Below are positions 13,819 through 45,618 of a DNA stretch of 64,000 nucleotides, piece by piece. A model generated the notes under the pieces. The model searched no databases and was not told the origin of the DNA. It saw only the letters and a list, made by a program, of their open reading frames with translations. The stretch is taken from NCBI GenBank assembly GCA_963705205.1, contig CAVPJG010000007.1, positions 84,336 through 148,335 of the forward strand, written 5' to 3'. This DNA is from an uncultured Thermoleophilia bacterium. GTDB taxonomy: Bacteria > Actinomycetota > Thermoleophilia > UBA2241. The position numbers and the translations under genes were made by a program. Each line of letters begins with the position of its first letter. Position 1 is the first letter of the stretch.

Positions 13819-15411
13819 TTATCGGAGGACGGAGTTGCCGCTGACGGTGTTGGTGCTGCCGCCCTCGTTCGCGATGACTCGCGCGCTGGCGGTCGGGGAG
13901 GAGGGGAGCAGGACGGTGTTGCCGGTCACCGTGTTGGAGGTGCACTCTTCGAAGATGGAGATGGTGCGGAAGAAGTCCGCGTAGTAGAGCGTGACGCCGT
14001 TGTCGGTCCGGTAGTCGAAGGTGTTGTTGCGCACCACGGTGTGGGTCGTGCCTTTGGTCAGCTTGACGCCGCTGACACGGCCCTTGCCGATCACGTTGTT
14101 CTCGATGACCGTGCCCTGACGCGACGGCTCGACGCAGATGGAGTACGGCCAGGCGGCGTTGCCGCCATCGTGCGGCAGGCCGCAGCCTTTGATCAGGTTG
14201 TCCCGGATCACCACGTCGTTGTGGTACTCGCGCGTCATGAGGCCGTCGAAGTCGAGCGTGAACTCGGCGGTCACCTCGAACGTGTTGCCCTCGATCAGCA
14301 CGTCGCCCCAGTAGCCGTCGCCCGCCTCGTCGCTCTGCCAGAAGACGATGCCGTAGGTGGGCGAGCCGGTGGCGACGCCGTTGGAGACGCCGAAGTGGCA
14401 GTCGAGGATGTTCACGTCGCGGATGACGGTACCCTGACCGGTGTCCACGGCGAACCAGAGCAGGCCGGCGCCGCCGTTTGAGGCCCAGGTGCCGAAGTTG
14501 CGGGCGAACTCGCAGCTCTGGAAGGTGATCCCGGTCACGGCACGGTTGTTCCAGCCGATGACCCCGCCGCCGTCGCCGCCGCCGAAGAAGCGGACGCGCT
14601 CGAACCTGGTGTTGGAGGTCGAGTAGCTCGCGGGCTCGTGCGAATGCCCCTTCCCGCCCACGGCGAGGTCGCGGACGGTAGTGTTGGATCCCCAGGTGAG
14701 GGAGCCGACGATGCGGGTCCGGTCCATGCCCTGTCCGATGACGGTCACACCGCTGGGCACCCGGACGTCACCCGTGAACGTGCCCGCCGGGCAGATCACC
14801 GTCTGGCCGCTGGTCGCGTTGTTGATGGCTGAAAGGGGGTTGCTCGTCGTCGGGGCCGGTGTGGTCGGCGTCGGGGCCGGCGGCGGTGTGACCGTCGGGG
14901 TCGGCGTCGGTGTTGCCGTGGGGGTCGGCGTCGACGGCTTCCGTGGCCGGCGAAGCTTGGCCGAGAGCGCGATGAGGTCCGTGCGTGCCTGCGAGAGGGC
15001 GCTGACCGCGCGGCTGCGTGCCTTCTTGAGCGTGCGTTGGGAGAGGCGGATCGCGTCCTTGTCGAGGTGGCCGGCGGCGGCGTTGCAGGCGAGCACCTCG
15101 GCCACGAAGGCGTCGTCCGCCTCTGTGGCCGCCAGCACGGACTCGCCGAGTCGAGTGAGGCTGAGGTTCATGCGTCTGACGAGGGCGTTGGTCCTGAGGA
15201 CCTTGCCGCGGAGGCGAGCCGAGCGCTTCACCTTCCCGGACATCTGAGTCAACCTGTCGATCTTCTTGTGGAGCTTCTCTGCGCGCTGTTCGATCCCGGA
15301 CAGATGCTTCGGCGCCGCGGTATCCGACGCGGCCGCTGCGGACATGGGGACGAGCAGACTGATGATGAGGATCCCGGTGACGACCGCGGGGGATGTCTTC
15401 AACCTGGACAC
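13819..15411 (-). CDS. secreted right-handed parallel beta-helix repeat protein with N-terminal helical region and Pro/Thr-rich linker
   Basis: GTG start at 15411 sits 6 nt after GAGGAGG. Signal peptide MSRLKTSPAVVTGILIISLLVPMSAAAAS, then ~150 aa helical/basic, then linker PSTPTPTATPTPTPTVTPPPAPTPTTPAPTT, then beta-helix repeats (VIRDNLI, NNVIGKG, TVVRNNTF, VTGNTVL). Confidence 0.7.
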   Translation of the reverse strand: MSRLKTSPAVVTGILIISLLVPMSAAAASDTAAPKHLSGIEQRAEKLHKKIDRLTQMSGKVKRSARLRGKVLRTNALVRRMNLSLTRLGESVLAATEADDAFVAEVLACNAAAGHLDKDAIRLSQRTLKKARSRAVSALSQARTDLIALSAKLRRPRKPSTPTPTATPTPTPTVTPPPAPTPTTPAPTTSNPLSAINNATSGQTVICPAGTFTGDVRVPSGVTVIGQGMDRTRIVGSLTWGSNTTVRDLAVGGKGHSHEPASYSTSNTRFERVRFFGGGDGGGVIGWNNRAVTGITFQSCEFARNFGTWASNGGAGLLWFAVDTGQGTVIRDVNILDCHFGVSNGVATGSPTYGIVFWQSDEAGDGYWGDVLIEGNTFEVTAEFTLDFDGLMTREYHNDVVIRDNLIKGCGLPHDGGNAAWPYSICVEPSRQGTVIENNVIGKGRVSGVKLTKGTTHTVVRNNTFDYRTDNGVTLYYADFFRTISIFEECTSNTVTGNTVLLPSSPTASARVIANEGGSTNTVSGNSVLR

Positions 15412-19732: not shown

Positions 19733-19951
19733 ATGCCGATCTACGAATTCTGCTGCAACCAGTGCGGAACCGCCTTCGAGGAGCTGGTCCGCAACGGCGT
19801 GAAGCCCGAGTGTCCGTCCTGTCACTCAGGCGACGTCTGCCGGCTGCTGTCCACGTTCGCCGTCCACTCATCGTCGTCCAACCTCGGCGGCAAGGGAGCG
19901 ACCAAGAGCTGCTCCTCCTGCGCCAGCTCCTCCTGTGCCACCTGCCACTGA
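19733..19951 (+). CDS. FmdB family zinc-ribbon regulatory protein
   Basis: MPIYEFCCNQCGTAFEEL...PECPSCHS has the CxxC...CPxC FmdB-type zinc ribbon, with a Ser/Cys-rich tail. Confidence 0.7.
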   Translation: MPIYEFCCNQCGTAFEELVRNGVKPECPSCHSGDVCRLLSTFAVHSSSSNLGGKGATKSCSSCASSSCATCH

Positions 19952-20882
19952 CGACGTCATCGCCGCTCTGGACTCCCTTCGCGAGGAGGTCGAGCGCTGC
20001 TCCAGCTGCGTGCTCGCCGAGACGCGCACGAGGGCCGTCTTCGGGGAGGGTGATCCCGGCGCCGACCTCATGTTCGTCGGAGAGGCGCCCGGCTATCACG
20101 AGGACCAGCAGGGCCGGCCGTTCGTAGGCCAGGCCGGCAAGCTCCTCGAACAGCTGCTCGCGTCCATCGGCATGAGCCGCGAGCAGGTCTTCATCGCCAA
20201 CGTCCTCAAGAGCCGCCCGCCCAACAACCGCGACCCGCGCCCGGAGGAGATCGACGCCTGCCGCCCGTATCTGTGGCGGCAGATCGAGATCATCAAGCCC
20301 AAGGTTATCTGCACGCTGGGCAACTTCGCGACCAAGCTCCTCAGCGGGGACCAGGCCGGCATCACCAAGGTGCACGGGCGTCCACGCGCGACCGAGATCG
20401 CCGGGCACCCTCTCTACCTGTATCCGATCTTCCATCCTGCCGCGGCGCTCTACACCCCGGCGATGCTGACGACGCTCAAGGAGGACTTCTCCCGGCTCCC
20501 GCAGCTGCTGGCGCACGCGGCGCCGCAGCCCGGCGAGGAGGCCGCACAGCCGCCGGCCGCGGAGCGGCCGGCCTGGACGCCGCCCGGGCACCTCGTGCGA
20601 GGGCGTGGCGACGGCGACGGACCGCGCGCGGACTCACTCTCGCTTGACGACGTCGGGGCGGCGGCCGGCACCTCCGGCGCGCCCCTCACGGACCCGCCGC
20701 CCGTCTCCGCGGAGCCGGCCCTCACGCACTCGCCGGCCAGCGCGGACCCGCCGCCTGCAGCGGCGGAGCCGGCGGCCACGGGCGATTCTCCGCCGGTCGT
20801 CTCCGAGCCGGCGCCACCCGAGCCGGCGCGTCCCGACGCCCGCCCGCCCGCCGAACCGGAGCAGCAGCTCGGCCTCTTCTAG
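19935..20882 (+). CDS. uracil-DNA glycosylase, family 4 (UdgA type), with Pro-rich C-terminal tail
   Basis: The family-4 UDG signature is present: CSSCVLAETRTRAVFGEGDPGADLMFVGEAPGYHEDQQGRPFVGQAGKLL ... HPAAALY. The C-terminal ~110 aa are Pro/Ala-rich low complexity. Confidence 0.8.
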   Translation: MPPATDDVIAALDSLREEVERCSSCVLAETRTRAVFGEGDPGADLMFVGEAPGYHEDQQGRPFVGQAGKLLEQLLASIGMSREQVFIANVLKSRPPNNRDPRPEEIDACRPYLWRQIEIIKPKVICTLGNFATKLLSGDQAGITKVHGRPRATEIAGHPLYLYPIFHPAAALYTPAMLTTLKEDFSRLPQLLAHAAPQPGEEAAQPPAAERPAWTPPGHLVRGRGDGDGPRADSLSLDDVGAAAGTSGAPLTDPPPVSAEPALTHSPASADPPPAAAEPAATGDSPPVVSEPAPPEPARPDARPPAEPEQQLGLF

Positions 20883-21377
20883 ATGATCGCGCTCACCCTC
20901 GCCTCGGCTGCCCAGACGCGGAAGCTCGCACGTGCGCTGGCCTCCCGGTTGCGCCCGCCGGCGCTGATCACGGTGGAGGGCGACCTCGGCACCGGCAAGA
21001 CGACGCTCGTCCGCGAGGTACTGCGCGCCCGCGGCGTGCGTGGCGCGATCACCAGTCCCTCGTTCACGCTCGCGCAGAGCTACCATGGGCGCGACGGGGA
21101 GCTCCTGCACCACCTCGATCTGTACCGCCTCAGCCGCGGCGCCGACGCGGAGCTGTTCGCTTGGGACGACTACCTGGGGCCGGACGCGATCACCTTCGTC
21201 GAGTGGCCTGCGGCCGGCAGCGACGCGCTGCCGCCGGCGAGCCTCCGCATCGAGCTGGAGCACCGGACGCCCGGCAGCCGCACGGCGCAGCTGTCGGGGG
21301 AGCCGGCGCTCGAGGCGGGTGTCGCGGCCGCGATGACCGCCGCCGGCGTCAGAGTGCACGCGGGGTCCGCGTCGTGA
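20883..21377 (+). CDS. tsaE: tRNA threonylcarbamoyladenosine biosynthesis ATPase TsaE
   Basis: P-loop VEGDLGTGKTTLVR plus the YjeE-family motifs (SPSFTL, HLDLYRL). Confidence 0.85.
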   Translation: MIALTLASAAQTRKLARALASRLRPPALITVEGDLGTGKTTLVREVLRARGVRGAITSPSFTLAQSYHGRDGELLHHLDLYRLSRGADAELFAWDDYLGPDAITFVEWPAAGSDALPPASLRIELEHRTPGSRTAQLSGEPALEAGVAAAMTAAGVRVHAGSAS

Positions 21378-22087
21378 TCCTCGCGCTGGAGACGGCGACG
21401 ACGGCATGCTCGGCGGCGCTGTGCGCCGCCGACGGCTCCGTCGTCGCCGAGCGCCTGGCCCTCGACGGTCCCGCGCATTCACAGCTGCTGCTGCCGTTCG
21501 TGGACGAGGTCCTTCGCGAGGCCGGCGCCGGTTGGGACGACGTCGAGACCGTCGCCGTCGGTCTTGGCCCGGGAGCGTTCACCGGGCTCCGCATCGGCAT
21601 CGCGACCGCGCGGGCGCTGGCGCAGGCGGACGGGCACGCCGGCTTGGCCGGGGTGCCCACGCTCGCGGCGCTGGCGCTCGCTCTGGCGGACGCGCTCGAG
21701 GCGGCGCCCGGACGGCGGCTGGTTCCGCTGGTCGACGGCCGCCGCCGCGAGGTGTTCGCGGCCGTCTTCGAGGCCGCCGCCGGCGGCCTGCGGCAGCTCG
21801 AGGACGTCAGCGTCGTCCCGGCAGACGGCCTGGCCGAATGGCTCGCCGCTCGCGGCGACGCGCTCGTGGGCGGCGACGGCGCCGCCTTGTACGGCGAACT
21901 GCTGCCCGCGTCGGCGCGGCCGGCCGCGGGCATCGTCGCGCCGACGGCCGCGATGGTGGGCCGGGCGGTCGCCTGCGGCGCGCCCGGCGTCGTGCGCGGC
22001 CCCGACGCGGTGCTGCCCGTCTACGGTCGCGCCCCCGACGCCACGCCGCGTCCGGGCGCGGCGCCGGGCGCCGGAGCGACGTCGTGA
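21374..22087 (+). CDS. tsaB: tRNA t6A biosynthesis protein TsaB (YeaZ)
   Basis: GTG 21374 overlaps the tsaE stop (GTGA). ILALETATTACSAAL ... VGLGPGAFTGLRIGIATARALA is the inactive-Kae1-homologue pattern. Confidence 0.85.
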   Translation: MILALETATTACSAALCAADGSVVAERLALDGPAHSQLLLPFVDEVLREAGAGWDDVETVAVGLGPGAFTGLRIGIATARALAQADGHAGLAGVPTLAALALALADALEAAPGRRLVPLVDGRRREVFAAVFEAAAGGLRQLEDVSVVPADGLAEWLAARGDALVGGDGAALYGELLPASARPAAGIVAPTAAMVGRAVACGAPGVVRGPDAVLPVYGRAPDATPRPGAAPGAGATS

Positions 22088-22572
22088 ACCTCAGGGTCGT
22101 CCCCGATACGCCACGCCACGAGCGCATCGTGCGCCCGATGCAGTTCCCCGACCTCGAGGCGGTGGCGGCCCTGGAGGCGCGCACGTTCACGCTGCCGTGG
22201 TCGGTCGCCATCTTCAGCGGGCAGCTCGCGCGCGAGAGCGGCATCTGCCTCGTCTGCGAAGCCGGCGGCCGCATCATCGCCTACCTCATCGCCGACATGT
22301 TCGTCGACGTGTGGCACCTCATGAACCTCTGCGTCGCCGAGGAGGCGCGACGCGGGCACGTCGCCTCGCTCCTGCTGGAGGCATACTTCGCCATCACCGA
22401 GCGCAAAGGGCACCGCGGGCACACGCTGGAAGTCCGCGTCTCCAACGCTCCCGCCATCGAGCTGTACCGCAGCTTCGGGTTCGTCTCCACGGGCGTCCGC
22501 CCCGGGTACTACAGCGACGACCGCGAGGACGCGGTCATCATGTGGAAGGACTGGGAGGGGGACTCGGCGTGA
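22084..22572 (+). CDS. rimI: ribosomal-protein-alanine N-acetyltransferase
   Basis: GTG 22084 overlaps the tsaB stop (GTGA). GNAT motifs: IAYLIADMFVDVWHLMNLCVAEEARRGHVASLLL and ELYRSFGF. Confidence 0.85.
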   Translation: MNLRVVPDTPRHERIVRPMQFPDLEAVAALEARTFTLPWSVAIFSGQLARESGICLVCEAGGRIIAYLIADMFVDVWHLMNLCVAEEARRGHVASLLLEAYFAITERKGHRGHTLEVRVSNAPAIELYRSFGFVSTGVRPGYYSDDREDAVIMWKDWEGDSA

Positions 22573-23795
22573 ATAGCCGACGCAGTCCCGCCATCGAGCG
22601 GGGCGCCGCAGGAGCACCGCTCAATAGCCGACGCAGTCCCGCCATCGAGCGGGGCGCCGCAGGAGCACCGCTCAATAGCCGACGCAGTCCCGCCATCGAG
22701 CGGGGCGCCGCAGGAGCACCGCTCAGCGCGGACACCGGACAGGCTTCGCCCGCCGGCCTCACCCTCGCCGTCGAGACGTCGTGCGACGACACCAGCGCGG
22801 CGGTCGTGCGCGGCCGTGAGGTCCTCTCGTCTATCGTCTCGTCCCAGAACGAGCTGCACGCGCGGTTCGGCGGCGTGGTGCCGGAGGTGGCCTCGCGCCG
22901 CCATACGGAACTGGTCAACGAGGTCGTCGCCGAGGCGATGAGTCAGGCCGGCGCCGGCTGGGACGACCTCGGCGCCGTGGCCGTGACGCAGGGCCCGGGG
23001 CTCATCGGCGCCCTGCTCGTCGGGTTGGCCACCGGCAAGTCGCTGGCCTACCGGCGCGGGCTGCCGCTGATCCCCGTGAACCACCTGCAGGGACACATCG
23101 CCGCCAACTACGCCCTCGGGGTCGAGGCGCCGTTCGTCTGCCTGGTCGCCAGCGGCGGGCACACGCTGCTCGCCGTCGTCGAGGAGGGCGTGAGCTACCG
23201 CGTCGCCGCCAAGACCATGGACGACGCGGCCGGCGAGGCCTTCGACAAGGGCGCCCGGCTGCTGGGGCTCGGCTACCCCGGCGGCAAGGAGCTCGACGAG
23301 CTGGCGGCGCACGGCGACCCGGGGTTCGCCCGCTTCCCGCGCGCCGTACCCAGGGGTCGTGGCTTCAGCTTCAGCGGCCTCAAGACGGCGCTGCTCTACG
23401 ACCTCAGGGGCAGAGAGGCGGCCGAGGTCGCCGCCCACCGCGCCGACATCGCGGCCTCGTACCAGGCCGCCATCGTCCGCCAGTTGGTGGACAAGACGCT
23501 GGCCGGCGCCGCCGCCGAGGGACTGCGCACCGTCGCCGTCGCCGGCGGCGTGGCCGCCAATTCGGGCCTGCGCCGGGCCTTGACCGAGGCCTGCGAGGCC
23601 GAGGGCCTGCGGCTGTCGTTGCCGCCCTTCAGCCTGTGCACCGACAACGCCGGCATGATCGGCCTTGCGGCCGGGTTCCTGCCGGCGCTTCGCTGGCCGG
23701 ACTACCTCGGCCTGGACGCGTTCGCCAGCGACGCCGAGGCCAAGGCGGCGCGTCCGGTGCGCAAGAGCTCCGCGCGCCGCCCATCAGGTCGCTAG
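22569..23795 (+). CDS. tsaD: tRNA N6-adenosine threonylcarbamoyltransferase TsaD, with N-terminal 3x17-aa repeat extension
   Basis: The conserved core (LTLAVETSCDDTSAAVV ... VTQGPGLIGALLVGL ... HLQGHIAA ... ASGGHT) begins right after the repeats. The only in-frame start between the rimI stop and the core is GTG 22569, which overlaps the rimI stop as GTGA, like the other junctions in this operon. Confidence 0.8.
   Translation: MNSRRSPAIERGAAGAPLNSRRSPAIERGAAGAPLNSRRSPAIERGAAGAPLSADTGQASPAGLTLAVETSCDDTSAAVVRGREVLSSIVSSQNELHARFGGVVPEVASRRHTELVNEVVAEAMSQAGAGWDDLGAVAVTQGPGLIGALLVGLATGKSLAYRRGLPLIPVNHLQGHIAANYALGVEAPFVCLVASGGHTLLAVVEEGVSYRVAAKTMDDAAGEAFDKGARLLGLGYPGGKELDELAAHGDPGFARFPRAVPRGRGFSFSGLKTALLYDLRGREAAEVAAHRADIAASYQAAIVRQLVDKTLAGAAAEGLRTVAVAGGVAANSGLRRALTEACEAEGLRLSLPPFSLCTDNAGMIGLAAGFLPALRWPDYLGLDAFASDAEAKAARPVRKSSARRPSGR
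22572..22724 (+). repeat. perfect 3x51-bp direct tandem repeat (aatagccgacgcagtcccgccatcgagcggggcgccgcaggagcaccgctc), in frame with tsaD
   Basis: Units at 22572-22622, 22623-22673 and 22674-22724 are identical. Each encodes NSRRSPAIERGAAGAPL in the tsaD frame. Confidence 0.95.

Positions 23796-44527: not shown

Positions 44528-45614
<1,087 letters not shown>

Positions 45615-45618
<4 letters not shown>

Follow-up and report, generated by a model that had tools for sequence, protein, structure and literature searches.

Three tandem units at the rimI/tsaD overlap of a Thermoleophilia bacterium belong to a dispersed family of structured junction repeats

The gene for TsaD in a 64,000-nt stretch of DNA from an uncultured Thermoleophilia bacterium (assembly GCA_963705205.1, contig CAVPJG010000007.1, positions 84,336 to 148,335; hereafter the window) begins with three identical 51-bp units, placed where the stop codon of the rimI-like gene overlaps the tsaD start codon. 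The unit is a member of a dispersed family, the copies of which characteristically sit at a fixed position relative to an NTGA stop/start overlap and are there read in frame with the downstream gene, share the orientation of their neighbors, fold into two hairpins, and vary in number between related genomes. We consider it probable (∼0.75) that the 3 x 51 bp are a recently expanded tandem array of an interspersed junction element of ∼51-57 nt that resembles the interspersed repetitive units of mycobacteria (MIRUs). The family lives in high-GC genomes of soil and sediment bacteria, and its tsaD copies are found in uncultured Thermoleophilia. The question posed by the array shifts from a stutter in tsaD to a repeat that targets stop/start overlaps and is translated onto many essential proteins. 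The premise implicit in the original prediction, made from the letters of the window, that tsaD had duplicated a piece of its own, does not hold for a unit that recurs at many unrelated junctions.

When the window was searched with Tandem Repeats Finder (TRF), one outstanding array was returned (22572-22725, period 51, 3.0 copies, 100% matches), the score of which (308) was far above that of every other array in the 64 kb. An exact search placed the 51-mer AATAGCCGACGCAGTCCCGCCATCGAGCGGGGCGCCGCAGGAGCACCGCTC at three consecutive head-to-tail positions (Table 1) and, even with up to three mismatches allowed, nowhere else in the window; none of 100 shuffled sequences contained a match. The three identical units described in the original prediction are therefore real, as is the array, except that it stops at 22724/22725 and not at 22740.

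Copies at unrelated stop/start overlaps

When metagenomes were scanned for the 25-nt core of hairpin 2 (GARCGGGGCGCCGNNGGNGCACCGC), at least 120 stretches matched, from which 80 loci were fetched. Some of these are mutually orthologous, and redundancy was reduced on the basis of sequence and not of phylogeny. Only two of the 80 are rimI-tsaD junctions (L138 and L150); most of the others carry the whole unit, with the consensus nTGAATAGCCnCCGCAGGCAAGCTATC-GAGCGGGGCGCCGnAGGGGCACCGCTC. The GC content of the non-tsaD loci is 65-75%, similar to that of the window (70.5%). In 49 of 82 copies, hairpin 2 is preceded, at a distance of exactly 27 nt, by an NTGA tetranucleotide (ATG in 22, GTG in 23, TTG in 4). 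NTGA comprises a start codon plus A, which gives a TGA in the +1 frame, that is, the stop codon of the upstream gene. To establish which frames are used at the non-redundant NTGA-type copies, the periodicity of GC content by codon position was analyzed, which is independent of any calling of open reading frames (ORFs). The downstream gene was in frame with the element at 42 of 43 junctions (binomial P ∼3e-19 against an expectation of 1/3), and the upstream gene occupied the +1 frame and ended at the TGA at 35 of 37. At its 3′ end, the element has no second overlap and passes into the downstream gene without a change of frame. Upstream of the start codon, positions -12 to -7 are G-rich (42 non-redundant family junctions).

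The downstream genes are unrelated to each other: the ten hosts assigned via Pfam were LeuD, a PstA-type permease, FolK, GatB, a NarL-type response regulator, CysN, OppD, MurE, NadC, and the small subunit of a hydrogenase, and the Pfam domain often begins at residue 24-27, just past the 17-residue insert. The glyQ/glyS junction is filled in one GlyS, whereas the insert is missing from orthologues with 80-86% identity (MSTLLIEIG...); the only close named match to this GlyS comes from a metagenome-assembled genome (MAG) labeled Deltaproteobacteria, which is probably mis-binned. Junctions between a sensor kinase and its response regulator are occupied as well (L114 and L125). Orientation is strict: of the flanking genes, those upstream have the orientation of the element in 66 cases and the opposite one in none, and those downstream share it in 68 and oppose it in one, which is a chance match from outside the family. 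In the reverse complement of the element, two of the three frames are open.

By codon-position GC content (0.76/0.81/0.62 for the unit versus ∼0.74/0.54/0.94 for the tsaD core and neighboring genes), the unit is unlike native coding sequence. A minority of copies are intergenic and lie upstream of TGGTACAAT-type promoters or of a tRNA gene, so not every copy is necessarily translated onto a downstream protein. Copies directly 5′ of an extended -10-like TGGTACAAT or TGGTAGAAT were observed at L130 1714-1870, L099 3667-3760 (the same as L161), and L105 9300-9416 (minus strand), and in these loci the next gene (prs, murE) has a start of its own after the -10-like motif.

Covariance model R1 of the family scored unit 1 with 73.4 bits (E = 9e-17) and unit 3 with 71.4 bits. 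It also revealed a second, decayed copy in the window (Table 1). This copy does not form an N-terminal extension; it is read as the tail (AKSQRSDAFVRGDEAASD) at the C-terminus of an OppD-like ABC ATPase and ends 9 nt before the GTGA overlap (45615-45618) with the next ABC ATPase gene. The pairing of hairpin 2 is kept in this copy via two double changes, A-T to T-A and G-C to C-G. Further copies were found by R1 within the fetched loci, three in L131 and two each in L132, L165, and L092, with up to three loci in a contig of 14.5 kb.

These data bear directly on the view that the array arose by slippage confined to this locus, in which a 5′ coding piece of tsaD would have been duplicated in place, would have no relatives elsewhere, and would tune TsaD by its copy number. 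The copies are indeed identical and in frame, and their number varies among relatives. However, the unit recurs, NTGA head and both hairpins included, at dozens of unrelated junctions, a decayed copy lies at another locus of the window, and the codon-position composition of the unit is unlike that of native coding sequence. The unit is thus not one derived from, and confined to, its host gene, as would be expected of a locus-specific coding variable number tandem repeat (VNTR), and we give this view next to no credence.

Arrays with a 51-nt period are also present at other genes (L111, L130, L168, L171, L129, L164, and L133). They are direct tandems only, hold from two to at least three units, and occur in many independent assemblies; their first unit starts with RTGA, later ones with CTCA. 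This speaks against the possibility that the element is real but the array was inflated during assembly, the true genome having one or two units. The perfect identity of the units, the exact 408-aa product being present on just one contig, and what are probably erroneous indels at this junction in two related MAG loci (see below) would be in line with such an artifact. Yet arrays of this kind are found at several genes in independent assemblies, the source contig is 245 kb long, and assemblers tend to collapse short tandem repeats, not to expand them. Overall, inflation of the copy number appears quite unlikely.

A sub-type of the repeat was observed in L093, L108, L121, L128, L137, and L154, ∼60 nt upstream of the pattern match. 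Its hairpin 1 reads GAAAAGCC..GGCTTTTC and its hairpin 2 GTGCGGGGCGGCGnAGCAGCACCGCAC, with compensatory changes in the latter, and it stands in tandem with a partial standard unit. Searching Rfam with E values up to 10 gave chance-level matches only. At the protein level, a synthetic query of four units yielded just four weak matches, and of seven matches to the 66-aa N-terminus in a representative library only two were true family members, so the tag is under-represented in protein libraries. In an incomplete search of the literature, which is no proof of novelty, no description of repeats in Thermoleophilia, or of MIRU-like repeats outside mycobacteria, was found.

The rimI/tsaD junction in the window and in relatives

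The product of the gene that begins with the array is TsaD, a subunit of the N6-threonylcarbamoyladenosine (t6A) transferase, encoded in a tsaE-tsaB-rimI-tsaD cluster. Gene order, as assigned via Pfam, is uracil-DNA glycosylase (UDG), tsaE, tsaB, a RimI-like GNAT, and tsaD. As the original prediction had it, GTGA overlaps also form the tsaE/tsaB (21374-21377) and tsaB/rimI (22084-22087) junctions. Between GTG 22569 and the TsaD core (LAVETSCDD), there is no in-frame ATG, GTG, or TTG, again in agreement with that prediction, and no stop; only three ATC codons are present. The next in-frame GTG (22806) falls within the conserved core, and starting there would remove the LAVETSCDD strand. GTG 22569 is the only workable canonical start of tsaD, and the deposited gene call (P0121) has the identical 408-aa product.

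The resulting extension of TsaD comprises 63 residues, of which 51 constitute the repeat that had been foreseen. In an AlphaFold2 model (45 homologues), the core is confident, whereas residues 1-57 have a predicted local distance difference test score (pLDDT) below 50 and no secondary structure, and are thus predicted to be disordered; strand 1 begins at residue 64, corresponding to position 22758. No Pfam family covers residues 1-83. E69 to D74, H172, and H176 are invariant across the 45 homologues, which means that the ETSCDD strand and the HxxxH metal site are kept. TsaD would be made with a probably disordered N-terminal extension, the effect of which is most likely little or none, that is, near-neutral. 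A twin-arginine translocation (Tat)-type signal (SRRxP...) was also considered and ruled out: the extension has no hydrophobic stretch and carries charged residues throughout, and TsaD is cytoplasmic.

The nearest genomes are those of uncultured Thermoleophilia. In nearly all homologous TsaD proteins and loci, the start is an ATG or GTG that overlaps with the stop codon of rimI, and the proteins carry a variable N-terminal linker, which in many of them is free of repeats (e.g., MSAAAAGQASPAGLILAVETSCDD) and of the same kind as the linker in the window. One copy of the unit is present at tsaD in, among others, P0001 (MNSRRSPAIERGAAGAPLSGLILAV...), P0003, P0006, P0133, P0159, L004, and L006, and two copies in P0148, P0179, and P0004. 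The suspected variability in copy number is thus real, with zero, one, or two copies in the relatives and three in the window. A single unit, which the original prediction would have taken as a sign of an expansion made by the assembler, is the typical state of the element. Two loci that are 98-99% identical over 7 kb, one with two units (L081) and one with a single unit (L082), differ by exactly 51 nt at the junction, and so do a filled (L085) and an empty (L003) one.

In 17 of 19 related loci, the length of the spacer that separates the end of rimI from the TsaD core is divisible by three (binomial P ∼6e-7, relatedness ignored), which means that the spacer is read in frame throughout. The two exceptions, one with a 2-nt deletion and one with a lost stop, are MAG contigs and may reflect sequencing errors. 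In the first (L001 2916-2970; Thermoleophilia MAG contig CAWIDR010000006.1), the deletion lies in a single unit and places the rimI TGA in the tsaD frame, which leaves tsaD without a canonical start. A sequencing error is the probable cause, and the case illustrates how such junctions mislead gene calling. In the second (L009 2965-3025; Thermoleophilia MAG contig CAWCAH010000012.1), rimI and tsaD form one frame without a stop (KDWEGDSRGDGLILAVETSCDD), which would reflect either a true fusion of RimI with TsaD or an indel introduced in the assembly.

The closest relative (L138; 93-94% nucleotide identity, 97.5% amino acid identity of TsaD) has a single unit. The three units of the window share two substitutions relative to it, one of which breaks a pair of hairpin 1, and do not differ among themselves. 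Being mutually identical yet two substitutions away from L138, they must have been amplified much more recently than the two lineages split, which bears out the recent expansion that had been deduced from their perfect identity. An ancestral single copy at rimI/tsaD would, thus, have given rise to three identical copies in this lineage, likely via replication slippage or unequal recombination between units.

Hairpins and possible functions of the element

Minimum free energy (MFE) folding of family members, with RNA and with DNA parameters, gave two hairpins, ....(((((.(((...)))..))))).((((((.((.((...)).)).)))))). Hairpin 1 is variable in sequence, but its pairs are kept (UA 30/CG 9, AU 35/GC 8, GC 41/CG 7, and CG 27/AU 4). 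Its covariation score was 0.131, compared with 0.067 ± 0.007 for shuffles, none of 500 of which reached that value, and with at most 0.071 when the partners were slid. Orthologous tsaD copies differ by compensatory pairs as well (ATAGC/GCTAT, ATGGC/GCCAT, and ACAGCC/GGCTGT). Hairpin 2 is a conserved 27-nt segment, for which double changes were found in the decayed copies detected by R1. Both hairpins close on a C-GNA-G triloop; this loop is unusually stable in single-stranded DNA, which we mention as a lead only. Folded as RNA, the whole array with its flanks was no better than shuffles (z = -0.53), which is no evidence of a special array structure; only the hairpins of the individual units, as seen by covariation, are informative.

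Because some of the changes in hairpin 1 are synonymous on one side and nonsynonymous on the other (AAT to AAC together with ATC to GTC), they point to selection on pairing, not on the peptide. The 17-residue N-terminal peptide (consensus MNSRRRQAIERGAGGAPL) could, in principle, still act as a signal for targeting, degradation, or interaction: it heads many unrelated proteins, gene callers include it, and its RR and ERGA-GAPL are conserved. A functional tag is nevertheless highly improbable, as the hairpin-1 region alters the peptide while the base pairs stay. Furthermore, rare codons such as GCA and GGA are kept despite a genomic third-position GC content of ∼0.94, copies occur in noncoding positions and as a C-terminal tail, and the extension of TsaD lacks a Pfam family and is predicted to be disordered.

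Selection at the RNA level is more difficult to dismiss. As a cis-acting RNA, the hairpins would set the dependence of the downstream gene on translation of the upstream one, or guard the upstream mRNA from 3′ decay in the manner of repetitive extragenic palindromic (REP) sequences, and copy number would tune the level of TsaD relative to TsaE, TsaB, and RimI. The strict sense orientation (66:0 and 68:1), the covariation backing both hairpins, and the compensatory differences between orthologous tsaD copies all argue for such a role. In addition, the element begins 1 nt past the start codon and would, hence, lie within the footprint of the initiating or terminating ribosome; stable structures right after stop codons have been reported to govern re-initiation (PMC7518266). 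Against it stands the patchy occupancy in close relatives, with zero to three copies at tsaD and filled and empty glyS junctions at 80-86% identity. Moreover, the two other GTGA junctions of the same operon lack the element, and some intergenic copies lie upstream of promoters or of a tRNA gene, where coupling is irrelevant. A cis-acting RNA is, therefore, a tentative option at best.

A broader version of this idea would make the repeat the representative of an undescribed class of structured mini-elements that colonize 4-nt overlaps on the sense strand and tune, at the RNA level, how strongly the downstream gene (tsaD, glyS, gatB, leuD, pstA, folK, and others) depends on upstream translation. 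Copy number would then be a heritable and rapidly mutable dial, and the 17-residue tag on dozens of essential proteins a by-product. We regard this version as unlikely.

Relation to known repeats and further features of the window

The reading that we prefer, a MIRU-like junction element that has recently expanded at tsaD, can be put in mechanistic terms as follows. The element characteristically occupies the 4-nt overlap (ATGA, GTGA, or TTGA) between co-transcribed genes, retains the upstream stop and the downstream start, and adds 17 stop-free codons in frame to the downstream gene. It is presumably tolerated because stop, start, and reading frame are preserved, which is the logic proposed for MIRUs (PMC12548453, citing Supply et al, 1997). 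Presence or absence at orthologous tsaD and glyS sites, together with dispersal, suggests a small element, mobile or recombining, that is spreading or did so in the past.

Several points weigh against this reading. The two lines of evidence just given constitute the whole case for mobility. No match to the repeat was found among 2.9 million viral contigs, and no flanking duplication of at least 4 nt, as expected of a target-site duplication, was detected in the one filled/empty pair compared (L085/L003), the sequences of which are diverged. The count of three units comes from the assembly alone. With respect to structure, the invariance of hairpin 2 in alignment A1 is an ascertainment effect and uninformative, the hairpin having been fixed by the search pattern, and its covariation was derived from a model-fitted alignment (A2), which is biased towards structure; the fold energies of single units are only modestly better than those of shuffles (z from -0.3 to -3.5). 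Finally, the strict sense orientation and the compensatory changes in the tsaD copies fit selection at the RNA level better than a purely neutral passenger.

MIRUs are the closest known system, which the element resembles in architecture, as compared by description and not by sequence. As summarized in two sources (PMC12548453, PMC3184786), MIRUs (Supply et al, 1997) are dispersed repeats of 40-100 bp located between co-transcribed genes at start codons, with a 4-nt stop/start overlap, so that translational coupling is preserved. The repeat described here is similarly small (51 nt per unit) and dispersed (over at least 120 metagenome stretches, and at two loci of the 64-kb window), and its host belongs to the same phylum, Actinomycetota. 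On these descriptions, both sit at operon junctions on a 4-nt overlap, which the present repeat has at its 5′ end only, with a frame that is open in the direction of the neighboring genes, both contain GC-rich internal inverted repeats, and both form tandem arrays with a copy number that varies between strains, the basis of MIRU-VNTR typing. One classic MIRU site, a sensor-kinase/response-regulator junction, has its counterpart (L114 and L125). The same descriptions also reveal differences: a MIRU has a short ORF of its own, spaced at -4 to the downstream gene, and its sites are flanked by tetranucleotide direct repeats, whereas the present element is stop-free and fused in frame, and the L085/L003 pair shows no such repeats. 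Its host, too, is a member of the Thermoleophilia, not Mycobacterium.

Rickettsia palindromic elements (RPEs; Ogata et al, 2000, cited in PMC3184786) are repeats of ∼105-146 bp at internal positions of Rickettsia proteins. They share with the present family, on that description, the dispersed, hairpin-forming character and the in-frame presence in many unrelated and often essential genes, but differ from an element of 51 nt at the extreme N-terminus, on a stop/start overlap, in tandem arrays, and in a Thermoleophilia host. The REP sequences and bacterial interspersed mosaic elements (BIMEs) of proteobacteria, associated with REP-associated tyrosine transposases (RAYTs), are extragenic and untranslated and are commonly found in either orientation or paired as inverted copies; stabilization of upstream mRNA is among their effects. 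Like the present repeat, they are short, GC-rich, imperfect palindromes, present in many copies per genome in the case of REPs and often located between genes of an operon. In contrast, most copies of the family described here are part of the downstream ORF, in sense only, and in direct tandems only. Ribosome termination structures (RTSs; PMC7518266) are stable mRNA structures directly after stop codons in operons, for which control of re-initiation has been proposed. The placement of a stable structure just downstream of a stop is common to both; however, RTSs are, on the same description, a statistical property of native sequences and not a repeated element.

If the family is as described here, MIRU-style insertion without breaking the translation of an operon would be a more general solution, represented here by a fused-ORF form. 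In practical terms, covariance model R1 permits the correct annotation of start codons and N-termini in Thermoleophilia MAGs and flags frameshift artifacts at element junctions. The arrays could serve as strain markers for uncultured soil actinobacteria in the style of MIRU-VNTR typing, and filled and empty junctions, with one to three copies in near-identical backgrounds, would amount to a natural experiment on translational coupling.

Table 1. Positions of the repeat units and associated features in the 64,000-nt window.
Feature	Position	Strand	Basis
RimI-like GNAT acetyltransferase gene; TGA stop (22570-22572) within the GTGA overlap	22084..22572	+	Pfam Acetyltransf_1, E = 1.3e-13
Shine-Dalgarno-like GGAGG inside the end of rimI, 10 nt 5′ of GTG 22569	22554..22558	+	Sequence reading
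GTGA stop/start overlap (tsaD start GTG and rimI stop TGA)	22569..22572	+	Characteristic 5′ end of the repeat family
tsaD coding sequence from GTG 22569, 408 aa	22569..23795	+	Pfam TsaD (PF00814), E = 1.5e-85, residues 84-365
Unit 1 (peptide in the tsaD frame, NSRRSPAIERGAAGAPL); hairpin 1, 22573-22594; hairpin 2, 22596-22622	22572..22622	+	TRF, exact search
Unit 2, same as unit 1; hairpin 1, 22624-22645; hairpin 2, 22647-22673	22623..22673	+	TRF, exact search
Unit 3, same as unit 1; hairpin 1, 22675-22696; hairpin 2, 22698-22724	22674..22724	+	TRF, exact search
Linker SADTGQASPAG, variable and of Ala/Gly/Pro type, joining the array to β-strand 1 of TsaD	22725..22757	+	
Second, decayed copy of the family	45550-45606	+	Model R1, 37.9 bits, E = 9e-8

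An identical 14-mer, TCCCGCCATCGAGC, is present in rimI (22449-22462; APAIELY motif) and in unit 1 (22586-22599; SPAIERG), and likewise in units 2 and 3. Derivation of the unit from rimI was considered on this ground and set aside, the match being probably due to chance: rimI of the relatives and the family consensus share only ATCGAGC, and the 14-mer is judged coincidental because it needs a T-to-C change private to the unit of this lineage. A CRISPR array was ruled out as well, the units being direct repeats without spacers and all in frame. Elsewhere in the window, the UDG-family protein (19935-20882, plus strand) has a Pro/Ala-rich low-complexity C-terminal tail of ∼140 residues (20450-20882), the DNA of which reaches a GC content of 0.83 and contains several short imperfect tandem repeats (TRF, 20540-20852). 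The second-best TRF array of the window is imperfect and lies at 14863-14933 (period 24, 2.7 copies, 87% matches, score 95).

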